Shown in pieces: positions 9,995 to 62,565 of a stretch of 64,000 nucleotides of DNA; position 1 is the stretch's first letter; each line of letters begins with the position of its first letter. A program made the position numbers and the translations under genes. A model generated the notes under the pieces. It ran no database searches. It had not been told where the DNA came from and saw only the letters and a program-made list of their open reading frames with translations. This DNA is from Eledone cirrhosa. Taxonomy: Eukaryota. The DNA is taken from the NCBI GenBank assembly GCA_964016885.1, contig OZ024756.1, forward strand, positions 39,866,001 to 39,930,000, in the 5' to 3' direction.

Positions 9995-10329
9995 GGCACA
10001 TGGCTTAGTGGTTAGAGCATTAGCCTTGCAATCGAAAGGTTGTGAGTTCAATTCTCAGACCGGGTGATGTGTTGTTTCCTTGAGCAAGACACTTTATTTC
10101 ACATTGCTCCAGTTTACTCAGCTGTAGAAATGAGATGATAGGGACTGGTGTCCCTATCATTCCACTGCAAAGTGGACGTGGAGGTGCCACGGCAAAAAAG
10201 CACCCAGCACTCACTGTAAATGAGGTTGGTGTTAGGAAGGGCATCCAGCTGTAGAAATCTAGCCAGAATCAGTTCCCGTCCCACCCTTGCAAGCAGGGAA
10301 AAGTGGACGTAAAATGATGATGATGATGA
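9995..10329 (+). mobile_element. Full-length tRNA-derived SINE family B with RTE-like tail
   Basis: A-box tggcttagtgg, B-box gagttcaattc, CORE-like ccttgagcaagacactt, 3' 'ggtgttaggaagggcatcc...ggacgtaaaatgatgat' shared with the RTE 3' UTR at 6548-6700. Confidence 0.85.
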
Positions 10330-10332
10330 TAT

Positions 10333-10653
10333 ATCATCATCATTTCATTTTACGTCCCCTTTTCCCTGCTTGCAAGGGTGGGACGGGAACTGATTTTGGC
10401 TTCATTTCTACAGCTGGATGCCCTTCCTAACACCAACCAGTGAGTGCTGGGTGTGTTTTTGCTGTGGCACCTCCACGACCACTTTGCAGTGGAATGATAG
10501 GGACCCCAGTCCCTATCATCTCATTTTTACAGATGTGTAAACTGGAGCAATGTGAAATAAAGTGTCTTGCTCAAGGAAACAACACATCACCCAGTCTGAC
10601 AATTGAACTCACAACCTTTCGATTGCAAGGCCAATGCTCTAACCACTAAGCCA
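10333..10653 (-). mobile_element. SINE family B copy, tail-to-tail with the previous copy
   Basis: Reverse complement of 9999-10329 with scattered differences. Confidence 0.85.
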
Positions 10654-10784
10654 TATATATAATATGAAGGAGTCAGGACCCCGACGGCTGAGCTCCTGTC
10701 ATTTCAACAGCTTGTTCCAAACTCAGAACTTGAGATATATGTATGTGTGTATACATTATATATATATATATATCTTAGTCTTAG

Positions 10785-17862: not shown

Positions 17863-18877
17863 TCCCACCCTTGCAAGTAGGGAAAAGCGGACATAAAATG
17901 ATGATATATATAGAGAGATTCACATACTCACATGTATCTTTGGCATGTTTTCTGTAAATTACTAATCCACTACTATATTTATTTCAAATACATACACACA
18001 CATATATATAAAATAGAGTTTAAATGCCTACCTCTATATCTCTGAGTGTGCATTATATATAGTTTTAATACCTACCTATATATATATATAAAAAATAGAG
18101 TTTAAATGCCTACCTCTATATCTCTGGGTGTGTATTATATATAGTTTTAATACCTATATATATATATATGTATATATTTACATATTTATTATAAGAACAG
18201 ATTACAGTTTAAGCAAAGAATCGCTGCTTTCACCCTTAACGGGTTTTAGTCTTCAGATTTATAATTACTATATATATATACACATATGTATGTGTGTTGA
18301 ACAATGAAAACAAAAGATGTTTAGTGCTTAATCTGTTCATTGTTTTATGATCGTTCCAGAAGTTGATTGATCATAATAAATCAATATGTGACTAATCAAT
18401 ACAAGTTATGTAACTCCATATTAAGTCTTAATAGTATAGATCCATCTCACTGTCTTTGTGAGAAACATGTAACACGCATGTCTGTGTGTAAATCATGACT
18501 CATACACTTCACTTTCCTGACATTTCTACATTATTCTATGTACTATACATACACCTTTGATGAGTTATAGTGCACCTGAGCACTGTACACAGTAATTTAC
18601 ATCATTATTAGTATAACCCTTGCCATGCCGAGTTTGACTTTGCCTTTCATCCTTACGGGGGTCGATAAAATAAAGTACCAGTAATGCACTGAGATAATTG
18701 CTGGCCTGCTGCCTAAAGTATAAACAATTATTAGTATAAATCACAGCATATATGAAGTGTTGTGATCAACGAAGCTGACCCCGAGCAAGATGGTTGGATA
18801 ACATCCATTAGCTTGGCTGGTCTCACTTGGGGATGGTTGCTTCTGACAGGACCTGCTGCCCACCACAACCCTCTCAG

Positions 18878-25607: not shown

Positions 25608-28172
25608 TCAAAGAAAGGAAGCTTGACCAATTATATTCTTCAGCTCATTAGCAACTCGGAATACCTCTTTAACACGTTCAACCATGTCTTGAACAGCTTG
25701 TACAGATGGATAGTATATTGCAGCTGTCTTGGTAGCCGCCACTGTTGATTTTAGATTGTTGCACAGTAGCGTTGTGCAATGCATGATCCGATTGCGGAAG
25801 TCAGTGTCCATTAAGTTCCGGTGAAGTGTGTCACCAATGTAAACCATTTTTGTGGCTGACAAAACAACGAATTTACTGTTGGAAATAAACACCTTTGGTG
25901 TCTGGATGCTGTCAATACAGTTATAGAAAGCCTCGATAGAGTTATTAAGTAAAGTATAATGTGTATTCATCTGTTCTGAGTAGTAGAGCAACACCTGTCT
26001 GTCATTAGGGGTCAGACGTTTCATGGGGAAATTGTTCTCAGAGATAACTCCTCCATTTAAGTTTGTATTATAGTTTGAAAAGTCAGTGTTACTTGTGGTA
26101 TTCACTGGTGTCTTCAGTTCCTGGTCAAAATCTATCTCAAGAGATTTTGACAGTGAAACATAATCAAGCCCTTTGCTAATATCTTGTACCTCTTTTGAAT
26201 ACTCTGTTGAATTAGCTTCAACATCTGGTCGATTGTTGTTCTCTTTGGTCCCCGTGGAAAGATTTAAGAGGCTTGAAGACCCTAATTGCATAGAGTTGAT
26301 GGCCGCTTCTAATGAGAATTCGGGGTCAGTTGCCTTATTTGGTTCAGGTTCTTCAAGAGTCTTTTGAAGTGGTTCAGATTCCCTTCGAACAGAAGTTTGT
26401 TTTGGAGGCACATCTTTTGAGGGGTTCAATACTTTTTCAGGGCTTGAGTCCCGTGTTTCCAGTTGGACATAATCATATTCCATAAAGTCTAAAGAGTCTG
26501 ATTCCTCCTTCTTGATGTTTATTATCACAGGTGTTCTTTTTGAAGGCAGCGCATCTGGCTTTGTCAGCAATGTCAGCTGGGAAGGTGTAGGGGGGAGTGG
26601 TCGATTGATTGGAGGAGGGGGAGGAAGAGGTCGGTTCTGAACGCTACCACTACTGTGACGACGACCGTGAATACTCTTTGAGAAGGCCTCAATGCTTCCA
26701 ATACTCCCTGACTTGGTCGGTACTGGCAGTACAATAGTATCAGATTTGTTGCAATCTGTTTGAGATCCAGAAATGTCAGAATTCTTGAAAAGAAGCACAG
26801 AGTTTCCCTGAATAAAAGAAGCAAGGCTGCGGACGTCAATTGTGAGGGTTTTGGAAAGATTAGCAATCTTTCCCAAATCATCATCTTTAGATCCATTGCT
26901 ACTTACAAGCAGGTTAATCTGCCACTGAATCGTAGAAAGGTTCTTCAAACTCAGTTGGATTTGTTGCAATGCCTGCTGAAGTGGCGTCAGCAACTTGTAT
27001 AATTTATTCACAAGTTTACGATCACATTTGCTGACAGAATTTGCTAGAGTACCTTCAGAAAACTCCACAAAGTCAGCCAAAGATGTCTGCATATTATCAG
27101 CTGCTCCTCTTATGTCATGTATATTGGGTTCCAAATGTTTTCTCATGCGCCAACTACTACTAATAAAGGGGGACATTTTGTTGATGGCTTTCTGAACATC
27201 TTGCTGTCTCTTGACCAGTAATTCCATGGCAACATCTTGTGCTAAGGGTAGTTCATTGTAAATAGGGATGTCCGATCCACGAGAGCCTGTGCTACACGAT
27301 GAGAGTCGACCAGGATCTTGTCCATCTGAAGAATCAGATTTGGCAGAAAGCAACGAGTCACGAGTGACTTGTGGAGGAATATCATAAACTGAAGATGCTG
27401 CAGCTGGTAGTGACTTGTTGTGAGGAGATGGTGCAGTGGTTGTTGCAGGCTTACCGGCAGGTGATGTGGCTGGCTTCTTCTTAGGCTCAATAGCTGGGCC
27501 ACTATTTTTGGGTGTGTCGTAGAGTTCCTCAAGATCATGTTCAAATGCAAGCGATGGCATATCAAAGTTGGACGGTTGTTCAACTGGTGGAAGATCATAG
27601 TCTTCAAATGCTGATTTGGGGACATCATAGTCATCCATGATGGTTGAATTAGAAGGGGACAGCGAGGTCTTTGTACGTGAGGGTGGAGTATCGTATAAAT
27701 CAAGACCCGAGTCAAACTGTTGTTTCAAGTTGTGAGAATGAGAATGGTCAGGCGGAACATCGTAAACAGCCGATGCGTCCAGACTAGATCGAGCTGAATC
27801 ACAGAGGCTGGACGTGTTTGATGAGCGTGGAAGACTCTGGTTAGATGCACTGCTAGACAGAGTCATGGTTGACTCAGTTGATTTGAAAGATGCCATGCTT
27901 GACCGGTTCGATGGCGGCACATCATAGGTCTCCCGGTCATTTGGAAGGAAACATTTAAAGGAATTGTCAGCAGGTAGTGATGTAGAAGGATAATTATAGA
28001 TGGACTGGTCAAAGCTTCTATCTTTTGGTGTATCATAGTTGGGTTGGAAGTCAGGATTGGAGTCTGAATTTACAATCGATGTTTGTACTGGGGGTACATC
28101 ATAATCTTCTGGAGTGTGTCGAGCAGGAGGGTGGTCATATGTTGGACCGCCAGGGTCAGCTTGTTGACCCAC
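25608..28172 (-). CDS. BCAR1: Cas-family adaptor (p130Cas/BCAR1/NEDD9-like), terminal coding exon: substrate domain, serine-rich helical bundle, Src-binding region and C-terminal FAT-like domain
   Basis: 854-aa non-repetitive ORF with 11 YxxP motifs (YDHP, YDVP x4, YDTP x3, YNYP, YDLP, YDIP), RPLPPPP/RPLPPTP, EYDYVQL and the C-terminal 'PKVFISNSKFVVLSATKMVYIGDTL...AVQDMVERV' typical of Cas proteins. Acceptor ttttgtag|GTG at 28173/28172; TGA at 25608-25610. The symbol denotes the family, not strict orthology. Confidence 0.93.
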   Translation of the reverse strand: MGQQADPGGPTYDHPPARHTPEDYDVPPVQTSIVNSDSNPDFQPNYDTPKDRSFDQSIYNYPSTSLPADNSFKCFLPNDRETYDVPPSNRSSMASFKSTESTMTLSSSASNQSLPRSSNTSSLCDSARSSLDASAVYDVPPDHSHSHNLKQQFDSGLDLYDTPPSRTKTSLSPSNSTIMDDYDVPKSAFEDYDLPPVEQPSNFDMPSLAFEHDLEELYDTPKNSGPAIEPKKKPATSPAGKPATTTAPSPHNKSLPAAASSVYDIPPQVTRDSLLSAKSDSSDGQDPGRLSSCSTGSRGSDIPIYNELPLAQDVAMELLVKRQQDVQKAINKMSPFISSSWRMRKHLEPNIHDIRGAADNMQTSLADFVEFSEGTLANSVSKCDRKLVNKLYKLLTPLQQALQQIQLSLKNLSTIQWQINLLVSSNGSKDDDLGKIANLSKTLTIDVRSLASFIQGNSVLLFKNSDISGSQTDCNKSDTIVLPVPTKSGSIGSIEAFSKSIHGRRHSSGSVQNRPLPPPPPINRPLPPTPSQLTLLTKPDALPSKRTPVIINIKKEESDSLDFMEYDYVQLETRDSSPEKVLNPSKDVPPKQTSVRRESEPLQKTLEEPEPNKATDPEFSLEAAINSMQLGSSSLLNLSTGTKENNNRPDVEANSTEYSKEVQDISKGLDYVSLSKSLEIDFDQELKTPVNTTSNTDFSNYNTNLNGGVISENNFPMKRLTPNDRQVLLYYSEQMNTHYTLLNNSIEAFYNCIDSIQTPKVFISNSKFVVLSATKMVYIGDTLHRNLMDTDFRNRIMHCTTLLCNNLKSTVAATKTAAIYYPSVQAVQDMVERVKEVFRVANELKNIIGQASFL

Positions 28173-30933: not shown

Positions 30934-31061
30934 TTAACATATGGTTCTTATATAAAATCATGTTGAAAGTTTTTAATAGAAACAGTAACTCTAAAATAGT
31001 ATCATTGTATCTTGGAGCAAGTTGGTATGAAAAGGGTTAACTACATACACATAACACATAC

Positions 31062-31352
31062 CTTATTTGGTGTCACGTCCCAGCTACGCCGATGCCAGCT
31101 ACTCGCGTGTGTAATATAGTTATCACAATTATTGGCATCCTTATTCGGAGTGGAAGTGAGGTTGGACATTCCACTAAGAATTTTGAGGCGGTTTCCTGGA
31201 GCAATGCCAGTCTTTCCTCGGAATGTACACCGCCACCATCCCAGCATACCATCTGTGTCTTGTTCAAGAACGGCAAGGACATCTCCACGCCGAAAGGCAA
31301 GTTCATTGGCTGATTCTGCAAGATTGTCGTATATCGCTTTGGCAAGGGCAGT
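31062..31352 (-). CDS. BCAR1: Cas-family adaptor, SH3-domain exon
   Basis: TALAKAIYDNLAESANELAFRRGDVLAVLEQDTDGMLGWWRCTFRGKTGIAPGNRLKIL is a Cas-type SH3 domain. Acceptor ctttgcag|ACT, donor AAG|gtatgt; 291 nt, phase 0-0, in frame with the 28172 exon. Confidence 0.93.
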
Positions 31353-31424
31353 CTGCAAAGAGGAAGAAAAATTATATATATATATATATATATAAATATA
31401 TGTGTGTGTATGTATATCATTTCA

Positions 31425-39150: not shown

Positions 39151-40353
39151 ATATATATATATATGAATCCCAGGTTCAATCAGGGGTAACCACTGTAAGT
39201 AAGGTACTCAATATATTAGTAGAGTGTAAACATCAAGTTTAATATAGAAATGGCTTCTACAGGACTAGAACTGTTTCATTCGAAAGAAATCACCAAAGCC
39301 AAGTGCCATTGTAATAGGGTTGTGTATGTGTGTGTGAATATATCCACCACCACCACCAATACCACCACAGCTACGACCACCACCACCATCCAGATAAATC
39401 TAAAAACAATTCCAATGACTACCCAGTACTAATTAAACCTTATTAAATAACGGAAGTTTCTCCCTGGTTGAAGCAAGTCTTAATGGCCAAATGGAGGAGA
39501 GGTGGTGGTGGGGGTGATAGAGGGGGATGGGGGACTATCAGAAACACCAATGTAATTTACATTCTTCAACAGAACTAGTGGAACTGATAGTCCTGCTGGT
39601 GTTGGTGGTGGTGGTGGTGGCGGTGGTGGTGGTGGTGTTGGCGGTGTTGGCGGTGGTGTTGGCGGTGCTGGTGTTGGTGTTGGTGTTGGGGGTGCTGGTG
39701 TTGGTATTGGTGCTGGTGCTGGTGGTGCTGGTGTTGGTGGTGGTGGTAGTAGTGGTGGTGGAGATGTTAGTTAATATTTAGCCCTAGGTCAGCTATGACT
39801 AAGCAGAACCATTGTCAAAGTCCATGACAGGCAAAAGACGGGATGGTTCTGGTTGTGTTGACAACTCAGGACTACATACGAGAGGAGATAAGTTGGTGGT
39901 GGTGGCTGGGGTAAGGAGGGGGTAGTGAGGGTGGTGGTGGTGGTGGTATAACAATGAAGAGACGATAGGCAAGGGGGGGGGGAGAAGTCGAGTGGTGGGG
40001 TGAGGAAATATATAGAGAGAGATGAAGGTGAAATAATCAAAGATGAGAGAGAAAAACGTGAAGGAAACAAGAGAGGACGAGAGAGAGAGAGAGGATGGGA
40101 TGGGGGGGGATGGGGGGATGGGAGAGAGAGAGAGGAGGAGAGAATGAGGTGTTTAACTGGGTCAGCAATTTATCTAGTGACACACACCCAAACACACAGG
40201 CAATACAAACACACAGGCAATACACACAGGCAATACACACACCCAATACAAACACACAGGCAATACACACACACAAACGTATGTACAGACAAGACACACA
40301 CAGACCCAAACATACACAGAGACACATACACACACATATATATATATACACAC

Positions 40354-42467: not shown

Positions 42468-43017
42468 TCATGTTATATAATTATGTAAGTAAAAAAAAAA
42501 GAAGCGACCCAAACAAATTTGCAGGAGTTTTAACGAAAAAAAACTATTTAACCTACTAAGAAATGTTTTGATGATCCAAAACGGAGAAAGCAGGCTTTGA
42601 TAATTTTTGTACAAGTTATAAAGATCATTTATATATATATATACCAGGTGCCCTTTTTTTTCGATCATTTTCCTTATATATATATATATATATAATATAA
42701 TAAGTTGTAATAAAATGAAAACGAAATTTCATTTCTCACTCTTAGTACGGCACTTACTTAAATGTAAGTATGTATGTATACGTACATACATATATGTATA
42801 CAGACGTACAGTAGCATGCATATATATATATATATATATATACATACATATATGTACGTATCAGTTTAGCGGAGGTTTATTATAACGTATACATACATAC
42901 TTACATATAATATAATAGATCTACATATATTATATATATATATATATATATATAATATATGTAGATTTAATACTTCACTGCTCGCAACCGTTGTTTAAGC
43001 TTCATATCATGTCTCCC

Positions 43018-43081
43018 TATTTTATCTGATGAGAACGCAAATATCATCCCATGATGTTTTTGAAATGCGCATAATAAAATA
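43018..43081 (+). ncRNA. Type I hammerhead-like motif
   Basis: Stem I tattttat/ataaaata, CTGATGA, stem II aaatatcat/atgatgttt with a damaged base, GAAA, palindromic stem III ATGCGCAT, UA cleavage site. Confidence 0.65.
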
Positions 43082-43199
43082 CATGGAACTCTTTTAACCA
43101 TCTTTTGATCTTATATTATTTATACTCCAGTCCTATAAATTGTTCAGTGCTACTTATCCGATATTTGCATTGTTTTATTGTGCTACACTAAAACTCACC

Positions 43200-43240
<41 letters not shown>

Positions 43241-48021: not shown

Positions 48022-48153
48022 AAGAGTTAAACAAAATTCAATGAGTATATCAAAGAATGAGTTTTACAGTAGATTGTAAATCTATTGTACATCCGAAATA
48101 TGTATAATAAAATGTAATTGATCAAAAGAGCATCTATTTTATTAATATTTATA

Positions 48154-48160
<7 letters not shown>
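48020..48160. mobile_element. Internally deleted, inverted copy of the hammerhead element at 59885-60293
   Basis: 48021-48075 resembles 59887-59940; 48085-48160 resembles 60210-60286; (TA)n on both sides. Confidence 0.75.
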
Positions 48161-55704: not shown

Positions 55705-56058
55705 CCCTCGGGACGGAGAATAAAAATCAAAGTAAAAAACAGAGGTAATAATATCCACTAATTAACAGACGGTGTAAGGTTTTCCTTTAAATATATGTTA
55801 ATGATCTGTGATACCTCCTTAACTTTACCTGGGATTTATTTGAGCTACATGATTAATAAACATGAGCTTCCTAGCATCACGTTCAGTCAAAACTAAGGGG
55901 GTATCTCCATTTATAAATCTGTGTATATGTGTTTATATATATGCATACACACACATATATATATATATATAAAAGTAAAAGAGTAATATGTGTGTGTGTG
56001 CGTGCGTGTGTAGAACAATTAAAAAACACAGAAGTCAGGTGTAGGTAGGTAGTTAGTT

Positions 56059-56195
56059 CATTGTTTTACGATTGTTTCAGAGGGTCGATTGCTCAATGGA
56101 GATCGATGTATCAACTAGCATGGTAGTGGTTAAGTAACTACCTATTTCTAGTCTCGAAATCCCTGTTCAATCGGCCGTCTTCCTCAGAAACAATG
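56059..56195 (-). ncRNA. Type I hammerhead motif with ~100-nt stem II
   Basis: Minus strand: CATTGTTT CTGAGGA [AGACGGCCGATTG...CAATCGACCCTCT] GAAA CAATCG TA AAACAATG; perfect 8-bp stem I. Confidence 0.75.
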
Positions 56196-56458
56196 TGTAT
56201 GTATGTGTGTGTATATATATATAACCCACTCTACTACTCAAAGAATCGAGTACTCCGGTGGGTGCGTTATGGTCCAACTGGTTCCTTACCACGCCTCCTT
56301 CGTTTTATATATATAAACCGTCACTCTCTATAATATTTATACTCCAGTTGATACCTTATCGATAACATTTTAAGGAATACAAATCGTAGAGTGCTTTACA
56401 TCAGTTAACAACAAAAGTCGGTGGCTTATCTGATCAACTTTCCTAAATTGAATTATAT

Positions 56459-59837: not shown

Positions 59838-59888
<51 letters not shown>

Positions 59889-60023
59889 GAGGTAAACAAG
59901 ATTCAATGAGTATGTCAAAGAATGAGTTTTACAGTAGATTGGAAGCACTCTACGAGAAAATAATTTTCCGGAGTTATTAATATTAAAATATAAATATTAA
60001 TAAAATAGATGTTTTTTGGAACA

Positions 60024-60086
60024 ATTACATTTTATTATACATATTTCGGATGTACAACAGTACGTCCTCATCAGACAAAATATAAT
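60024..60086 (-). ncRNA. Type I hammerhead ribozyme (left arm)
   Basis: Reverse complement of 60182-60244. Confidence 0.85.
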
Positions 60087-60181
60087 GATACATGACATAC
60101 CCTGAGATGTTAAATGGTTAAGATTTAATCAAGGTAGTTGATTAAATCTTAACCATTTAACATCTCGGTATGTCATGTATC

Positions 60182-60244
60182 ATTATATTTTGTCTGATGA
60201 GGACGTACTGTTGTACATCCGAAATATGTATAATAAAATGTAAT
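60182..60244 (+). ncRNA. Type I hammerhead ribozyme (right arm)
   Basis: Stem I attatattttgt/ataaaatgtaat (12 bp including 2 G-U), CTGATGA 60194-60200, stem II ggacgtac/gtacatcc, GAAA 60221-60224, self-complementary stem III ATATGTAT, predicted cleavage after A60232. Confidence 0.85.
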
Positions 60245-60285
60245 TGTTCCAAAAAACATCTATTTTATTAATATTTATATTTTAA

Positions 60286-60340
<55 letters not shown>

Positions 60341-60477
60341 CCAAAGATTAATATGGTTCATTGATTACTCAATGAATATAGTTTTACAATAGATTAAAAG
60401 CACTCAACAACGAAGTTTTCTGGAGTTATTATTATTCAGAATAATAATAAATGAAGACATTCACATAATGAAAATAT

Positions 60478-60548
60478 ATGTTTTATTATATATATTTCGA
60501 AGGTACTGTGCTGTTTTTTTCAGTACGTCCTCGTCAGATAAAATACAT
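60478..60548 (-). ncRNA. Type I hammerhead ribozyme in a diverged sister element (~60340-60600)
   Basis: Minus strand: ttttat CTGACGA GGACGTACTG..CAGTACCTTC GAAA TATATA TA ataaaa. Confidence 0.75.
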
Positions 60549-60603
60549 GAATTGATGTATGACATACCTCAACTGTCTTGATGGTTCAATTCCAGTATTA
60601 GCA

Positions 60604-60647
<44 letters not shown>

Positions 60648-61448: not shown

Positions 61449-62096
61449 ACATTTGTTCAAATGCAAGCGCGAAAAGATAAAATAATCAGGACACCAGACA
61501 AACAGACAGACACACACACACACAGAGACATACACACAGACAGAGAGAGAGAGAGACAGACACACACACACACGCAGACAGGCATAAACACAGACACACA
61601 TATATAGACACACAGACATACACACACGCAGACAGGTATACACACACACACATATATAGACACACAGACATACACACACACACAAACTGCGCCATCCCCA
61701 CCACTGCATCAACAACAATGTCTGCGACTTGGAGGTAAAGATTGAAACAAAACTTCGACAGCCGTGAATAAAGCAGTAGAGCGCCCAGCTAAATAATGTG
61801 TGTGAGAGTCCCGGGTTCAATCGGGGGGTAACCACAGTTAGGTACTCAAAGGGGTTTTCAGATGAGTTCCTTCGAATGAAACAGTTCCAGTCCTGTAGAA
61901 GCCATTTCTAGATTAAATTTGACACTCACACCATTTATATATATATATATATATATATATATGTAGATAAATCTACCAAGAGTTTACGGTAGTGTCCAAT
62001 CCGTATGAAGAACTCAATGTATTCCGGATATCATGGAAAGAAGAGATGTAATGAAAAACCACTTTCGGTGAAAGATAAACGGTATACAGAGTCAAG

Positions 62097-62490
62097 ATAA
62101 AATATTAAACAAATAATGAATAAACAATTCCTTATATTAAACAAAAAAAGTTCATTATTTAACGATCGTTTCTAGGGTATATATGTGTTATAATTGGTAT
62201 GCATATTCAACAGATCTATGTACAAAATTATACAAAATTATACAAATTATCAAGATTAAATATACATACCTAACACATATATACGCCGTCTTCAGAAGAA
62301 GACGGCGTATATATGTGTTAGGTATGTATATTTAATCTTGATAATTTGTATAATTTTGTATAATTTTGTACATAGATCTGTTGAATATGCATACCAATTA
62401 TAACACATATATACCCTAGAAACGATCGTTAAATAATGAACTTTTTTTGTTTAATATAAGGAATTGTTTATTCATTATTTGTTTAATATT

Positions 62491-62494
<4 letters not shown>
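62097..62494. mobile_element. Perfect fold-back palindrome (197-bp arms, 4-nt spacer) carrying a long-stem-II hammerhead-like motif
   Basis: Arms 62097-62293 and 62298-62494; contains GAAGA..AGACGG, a long hairpin, GAAA CGATCG TT AAATAATG. Confidence 0.85.

Positions 62495-62565
<71 letters not shown>

Follow-up and report, generated by a model that had tools for sequence, protein, structure and literature searches.

A putative Penelope-like element stump with two head-to-head copies that meet in a hammerhead ribozyme core

Insertions of endonuclease-bearing Penelope-like elements (PLEs) are described as containing an inverted, 5'-truncated copy, a tail of 30 to 40 nt at one end and a bias for TA targets (Craig et al. 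2021, PMC8557442), with PLE copies in head-to-head orientation (Arkhipova et al. 2013, PMC3846280). Palindromes at the junctions were interpreted in the latter publication as the result of self-priming on an antisense template. Minimal hammerhead motifs originating from truncated PLEs possess a palindromic stem III and appear as opposite-strand pairs 100 to 700 bp apart (Cervera and de la Pena 2014, PMC4209133). In vitro, a PLE protein nicked and extended both target strands and started reverse transcription at two sites bounding the tail, and ribozyme cleavage was unnecessary for insertion (Frangieh et al. 2024, PMC11167929). Non-LTR retrozymes consist of units repeated head to tail in tandem, and every unit has its own complete type I hammerhead (Li et al. 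2026, 10.64898/2026.07.22.740005). The formation of the inverted end of PLEs and the role of the hammerhead are stated as open in PMC8557442 and PMC11167929. 

The locus at positions 61963-62494 of the window, which is the whole 64-kb stretch of DNA analyzed, is likely a young-looking stump of the PLE type. It is composed of the following features, with offsets counted from C3 of the core.

61936-61962, no strand: left (TA)n target run (sequence).
61963-62096, minus strand: 134-nt 3' tail, left copy only, with a family-wide 3' end as its outer end (sequence and reads; 12 X1 contigs join (AT)n to a similar tail end).
62097-62297, minus strand: left copy, sense on minus, 5'-truncated 2 nt upstream of C3, including the spacer 62294-62297 (palindrome search, X21 loose ends, X4 piece and X5 contig).
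62289-62295, minus strand: hammerhead core C3 to A9, complete in the left copy only (sequence motif).
62173-62288, minus strand: stem II region, 116 nt, a long predicted hairpin with a non-canonical base (fold prediction).
62161-62172, minus strand: G12 to A15.1, palindromic 6-nt stem/loop III, U16.1 and H17, with predicted cleavage after 62161 (sequence).
62151-62160, minus strand: stem I 3' strand (compared by eye with the loose-end consensus at 62297).
62298-62494, plus strand: right copy, sense on plus, beginning at G5 and finishing at the inner family 3' end, the exact mirror of 62097-62293 (palindrome search and reads).
62495-62561, no strand: right flank (TA)n(CA)n(TA)n (sequence).

A preliminary description of this DNA had reported a 197-bp perfect palindrome, and an exact palindrome search of the 64-kb window returned the same structure: a left arm at 62097-62293 and a right arm at 62298-62494, 197 nt each with 0 mismatches, separated by a 4-nt spacer at 62294-62297. 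This was the longest of 5 non-simple exact palindromes with arms of at least 25 nt, the second-longest non-simple arm in the window having 37 nt. The left arm ends in the same 3 nt with which the right arm begins. The two copies are joined without microhomology, with their ends at −2 and +2 from C3. A 3' tail on the left arm alone and (TA)n on either side had also been noted before, and both are present in the sequence, the tail with 134 nt. The run on the left is at 61936-61962, and on the right (TA)n(CA)n(TA)n starts at 62495; within this right flank (62495-62561) no target-site duplication could be distinguished. The arms are identical as claimed, but the conclusion that the event was "very recent" can only be bounded, with 0 differences in 197 positions allowing up to about 1.5% divergence between the arms (rule of three). 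Gene conversion between the arms could also keep them identical.

Read outward from the centre, each arm contains the end of a hammerhead core, the 116-nt hairpin region, GAAA, a 6-nt palindrome, a UH site and a 10-nt strand of stem I. The core letters C3 U4 G5 A6 N7 G8 A9 ... G12 A13 A14 A15.1 ... U16.1 H17 are matched in the left copy only. This minus-strand copy retains CUGAAGA (62295-62289) plus 2 nt of stem I, while the plus-strand copy begins at G5 and is devoid of C3 and U4. The apex is located in the hammerhead core, as had been stated, with the left copy ending 2 nt before C3 and the right one starting at G5, but it is not symmetric. The stem II region between A9 and G12, previously given as about 120 nt, comprises 116 nt, and both helix pairs named at that time are present in the predicted fold. 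The hairpin had z values of −6.8 and −7.2, with 0 of 200 shuffles as stable in each case. In the predicted fold, the G10.1-C11.1 pair adjoining G12 is absent and two unpaired nucleotides are found between the last G-C pair and G12, and 62297-62293 pair with 62170-62174, joining the first bases of the core to the GAAA side. The 5' end of the left copy falls at the base of this extended hairpin. Family variants in stem II at 62177, 62198, 62278 and 62284 retain standard or wobble pairs when the reads are compared by eye with the predicted fold. Positions 15.2 to 16.2 with loop 3 form a 6-nt palindrome at 62163-62168. H17 is U at the locus and A in about 24 to 31% of the X21 reads and in 29% of the X1 depth.

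The stem I 3' strand at 62151-62160 is complementary over 10 bases, as judged by eye, to the upstream consensus in reads of other copies. Of the 5' strand, 2 nt are left at the locus. The turn at the CUGAAGA core had been said to remove this strand, and the recovery of the absent strand from reads of other copies bears this out. With the stem I 5' strand gone, the hammerhead in the stump likely cannot fold and is likely a passenger. Downstream of the predicted cleavage site, at 62110-62120 on the minus strand, the sequence of the stem I 5' strand occurs once more; the fold prediction pairs this copy with the 3' strand of stem I, and it could compete with the active fold.

The motif resembles the minimal hammerheads of metazoan PLEs in its core letters, its palindromic stem/loop III, a possible extra nucleotide after A9 and the presence of opposite-strand motif pairs a few hundred bases apart. 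It differs from them in its stem II region, which has 116 nt instead of 7 to 8 bp and no G10.1-C11.1 pair adjoining G12, in a parent stem I of 10 bp and in a predicted fold that buries the core. Rfam gave no hammerhead among the 150 of 282 matches listed for the whole window, nor in three small regions, one of them that of the motif itself with 4 matches at E up to 10. Rfam is blind to such motifs here, because a textbook-looking neighbor motif at 60194 also remained unmatched (0 of 2 matches).

A relationship of the arm to the motif at 56059-56195 had been proposed and was upheld, as 0 of 2000 shuffles reached the local score, this partner having been chosen for its motif and not blindly. The match spans the 3' half of the arm with the end of stem II, GAAA, stem III and the stem I 3' strand. 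A second motif at 18330-18470 is more weakly related (31 of 2000 shuffles). Both 56055-56197 and 18330-18470 appear as older relatives with a stem II of roughly 100 nt, and the 56059 copy retains an 8-bp stem I and a cleaner base of stem II.

Evaluation of the family in sequencing data needs to consider the sample used. Four of 23 runs were aligned to 61700-62335, a stretch that starts in the left flank and extends over the tail, the left arm and the apex into the first 38 nt of the right arm, with 61925-61975 excluded from the alignment; the data were short contigs and 150-nt reads. X21, with 8,828 aligned reads, is reduced-representation DNA and a biased sample of loci. The read evidence is that of the rows listed, namely 24 of the 360 for loose ends, 15 of the 17 for joints and 24 of the 7,962 for contig pieces. 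The summed X1 contig depth on the family was several hundred thousand, compared to 4.9 on the unique flank, which is not a copy number. Family pieces that were 85 to 98% identical were also present in a second organism (X5, records 17 to 24). At 62297, 267 X21 reads departed from the reference in one consensus (agreement of 0.85, median loose length of 88, mean depth of about 327), and one X5 contig read through this position with the same upstream continuation. Since the read consensus beyond 62297 continues upstream and supplies the stem I strand, the spacer 62294-62297 is parent sequence. At the opposite side, 405 X21 reads ended at 62097 in (AT)n, with a mean depth of about 858 in the adjoining tail bin, and in 12 X1 contigs (AT)n was joined to a similar tail end at about 61963; the tail 61963-62096 was covered in all 4 runs. 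Because reads and contigs stop there in (AT)n, both 3' ends of the locus, 62097 with its mirror and about 61963, are family-wide ends. The likeness in layout between this tail and that of the element at 59885, pointed out earlier, extends to this feature: in the 59885 family ("E59"), the copies at 59885-60293 and 48022-48160 likewise share two fixed ends of their own.

Record 16 of X4, a piece of 80 nt with 0 differences and a depth of 37, reached 62297, and the unique flank was uncovered in X4. This indicates that at least part of the letters of the locus are those of a subfamily. The exact junction of the locus was absent from the 24 of 7,962 contig pieces listed. A joint at 62096/62222 (72 reads with 1 start) was disregarded, since it may represent a single molecule or internal similarity of the hairpin. 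The high-copy family, with its long stem II and long tail, is apparently undescribed.

Judged by architecture alone, the locus is likely a PLE stump, and the former description as a retroelement insertion with a hammerhead-type motif agrees with this, its architecture matching that of published PLE insertions. Like PLEs with an inverted pLTR and a tail, the locus has a 5'-truncated copy that is inverted and faces a second copy head to head, an extension at one end, present here as two fixed 3' ends at 62097 (405 reads) and about 61963 (12 contigs), an AT-rich (TA)n target as in the Naiad and Hydra clades, and no discernible target-site duplication in the microsatellites. Unlike them, it is without an ORF and its tail has 134 nt instead of 30 to 40 nt; that of the neighboring E59 family has about 90 nt. 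AT-rich targets, extension of both strands and two reverse transcriptase (RT) start sites defining the tail are shared with the Poseidon element of Anolis carolinensis (PAc) in vitro, although the start sites are tens of nucleotides apart in PAc and 134 nt here; the parts of PMC11167929 considered here give no account of inverted junctions and no mapping of 5' ends. With the non-LTR retrozymes, the locus has in common a short non-coding PLE-related sequence, a type I hammerhead and dispersed monomers, but it contains two head-to-head units, neither of them complete, and no tandem unit.

Endonuclease-bearing PLEs encode a PLE-type RT and a GIY-YIG endonuclease, and their full-length copies are partial tandems of the form pLTR-ORF-pLTR. 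Among the 78 ORFs of at least 120 aa in the 64-kb window, no PLE-type RT or GIY-YIG ORF was recognized by eye (3 ORFs were scanned in Pfam), and no reading frame was evident by eye in the tail 61963-62096. Three short motifs had 0 matches in the supplement of PMC8557442, and a metagenome scan with one motif yielded 0 loci. The 119 metagenome loci with a 17-nt motif were attributed to chance, none of them matching the element beyond the motif (1 match over 25 nt, E of 0.73). The tail had no significant likeness to 4 other tails, 230 to 990 of 1000 shuffles scoring as well, and a tail motif that the family and its neighbors had seemed to share by eye was discarded as not significant in 4 of 4 comparisons.

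The position of the apex was compared with that in other copies in the reads and the window, and the outcome was divided. On the one hand, the X1 contig 62235-62319 seems to cross the same apex, with 6 differences and 2 gaps, but it reaches 22 nt past the apex, which is below the 31-nt bridging rule. Six X21 reads (2 starts), which have at least 6 other differences and all show a family variant in mirror image, seem to cross it too. Of the 17 joints, no more than 3 can be located at other positions in the arm. Taken together, these observations argue against a purely incidental apex. On the other hand, the other two junctions in the window turn off the core, at −63/−56 (59885-60293) and +130/+14 (48022-48160) from C3, and two solo neighbors begin at −69 and −65. 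One of three window junctions is at a core, and this one was chosen for being there. The probability of a single end within a 9-nt window is 1 to 3.5% under a uniform null over 260 to 1000 nt, with the window set post hoc and the two ends correlated. The read reference ends at 62297 in the element, which renders junctions upstream of this position invisible. No paper that maps PLE inversion apices against the ribozyme was found in the open-licence literature.

With a probability of about 0.68, one insertion of a high-copy PLE left two 5'-truncated, hammerhead-bearing 3' ends head to head in (TA)n as twin-primed cDNAs, the stop at the core being incidental or loosely set by the hairpin. The PLE endonuclease would nick both strands of the TA target. 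The left arm with its tail would be the cDNA primed from the outer RT start site, and the right arm that primed from the inner start site, probably on the same RNA. Both cDNAs would stop early, the stop at the core likely being incidental or loosely set by the long hairpin, and their 3' ends would be joined and filled in. This two-cDNA account is the simplest and explains why each arm ends at a fixed 3' end of the family. The preliminary description had inferred another course, a stall or snap-back of the RT at the ribozyme structure, in which one cDNA would stall at the folded ribozyme, fold back and prime the second arm from the first. Identical arms, a 4-nt spacer as the loop and a 3-nt repeat at the arm ends, as fold-back slippage could give, would agree with such an event, and junction palindromes are read as self-priming in PMC3846280, albeit on an antisense template. 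Yet simple snap-back copying would not predict that the right arm stops at a fixed 3' end of the family while the left arm continues for another 134 nt, and a direct fold-back at the small palindrome of the core predicts, as judged by eye, a 1-nt centre and not the 4 nt seen. RT travels 3' to 5' on RNA, and stems I to III should therefore have been opened before RT gets to the core, so that the ribozyme helices would already be unwound at this point. In the stump at 48022-48160, the left arm is the tail only and the right arm runs from stem II to the inner 3' end. The arms come from non-overlapping parts of the element and the right arm there cannot have been copied from the left. The same junction holds a short snap-back hairpin of about 11 to 13 bp, which speaks for the fold-back course and indicates that a fold-back can occur during joining. 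Since 267 X21 reads continue past the core in one consensus compared to 6 that seem to turn there, the neighbors turn elsewhere and the right arm ends at the family 3' end, the stall at the ribozyme was not sustained, and formation of the second arm by snap-back is unlikely.

Twin priming in the same PLE insertion may also have been combined with an apex set by the structure of the RNA or cDNA, the long stem II, extended by the core/GAAA pairing, fixing a preferred end. Either the template RNA would be trimmed back to the base of the hairpin, or the hairpin of the nascent cDNA would close and free the RT just after stem II was copied. The end of the left copy at the base of the predicted hairpin (62297-62293 with 62170-62174), the similar fold of the related 56059 copy, which begins about 10 to 20 nt upstream of its core, the distance of at most 4 nt between the two ends of the locus, the hints at a shared apex in diverged copies and the post hoc single-end probability all point in this direction. 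The reads running through the core, the invisibility of upstream junctions, the selection of the one core junction out of three and the two E59 ends, which likewise lie no more than 7 nt apart in a place that has no core, point away from it and make it rather unlikely. An element other than a PLE, i.e., a foldback or MITE-like DNA transposon or a SINE or retrozyme monomer moved by another RT, would agree with the lack of a coding partner for the family, with the TA targets and inverted repeats that also occur in DNA transposons, and with the type I hammerheads that retrozymes carry too. The centre is not fixed, however, as most copies continue upstream, the ends are unequal and no tandem array exists, making such an identity very unlikely. 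A fold-back read in the library or an assembly artefact would produce arms that are 100% identical and a junction absent from the listed contig pieces. It would hardly produce a mirror that ends at a family-wide 3' end followed by different flanks, or a one-sided tail, and two more structures of this kind exist in the window, one with a 2-nt indel between the arms; the odds of an artefact are accordingly minute.

The locus alone settles neither the formation of the inverted end nor the role of the hammerhead, but its family could. The two distant fixed 3' ends tell which arm came from which RT start site, and junctions with non-overlapping arms such as that at 48022-48160 allow twin priming to be told from snap-back. 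Clustering of apices at the core in no other families than those with a long stem II would give the ribozyme fold a role other than cleavage. A farther-reaching and doubtful notion is that the 116-nt stem II acts as a built-in stop, both twin-primed cDNAs ending at the base of the hairpin in the core, with many independent palindromes sharing this apex. This would mean that the ribozyme fold sets cDNA ends without cleaving, and the family, with its very many copies and the 134-nt gap between start sites, would naturally record the way in which PLE insertions acquire their inverted half.

The window is microsatellite-rich animal DNA, and the microsatellites suggest that the host may be a cephalopod. 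The stump at 48022-48160, a (TA)n-flanked head-to-head member of the 59885 family, is mechanistically its most telling copy. Hammerhead families with a short stem II, intact cores and a tail of about 90 nt are found at 59885-60293, 60340-60606 and 42961-43200. Their 5' ends are located at −56 to −69 from C3 in all 4 arms that reach upstream and may mark a fixed 5' end of the RNA. Another high-copy repeat with a decayed CUGANGA...GAAA motif is present at 61845-61925 and 39233-39295. Many copies of this repeat seem to be head to head, with 11 opposite-strand joints in the reads. These joints, at 61850-61889, had been considered as apices piled up at its core and were rejected as alignment clipping, 14 of the 22 ends being one base after a mismatch and 2 at the edge. 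A diverged palindrome of 655 bp (91%) with SINE-like outer ends and a (GAT)n/(ATC)n centre is located beside (TA)n at 10000-10654, and short exact inverted arms of 34 and 31 nt centred on a (TA)n run are at 1350-1417 and 1847-1926. On the minus strand, 25608-28172 and 31041-31421 contain exons of a CAS-family adaptor gene with SH3, Serine_rich and CAS_C domains.
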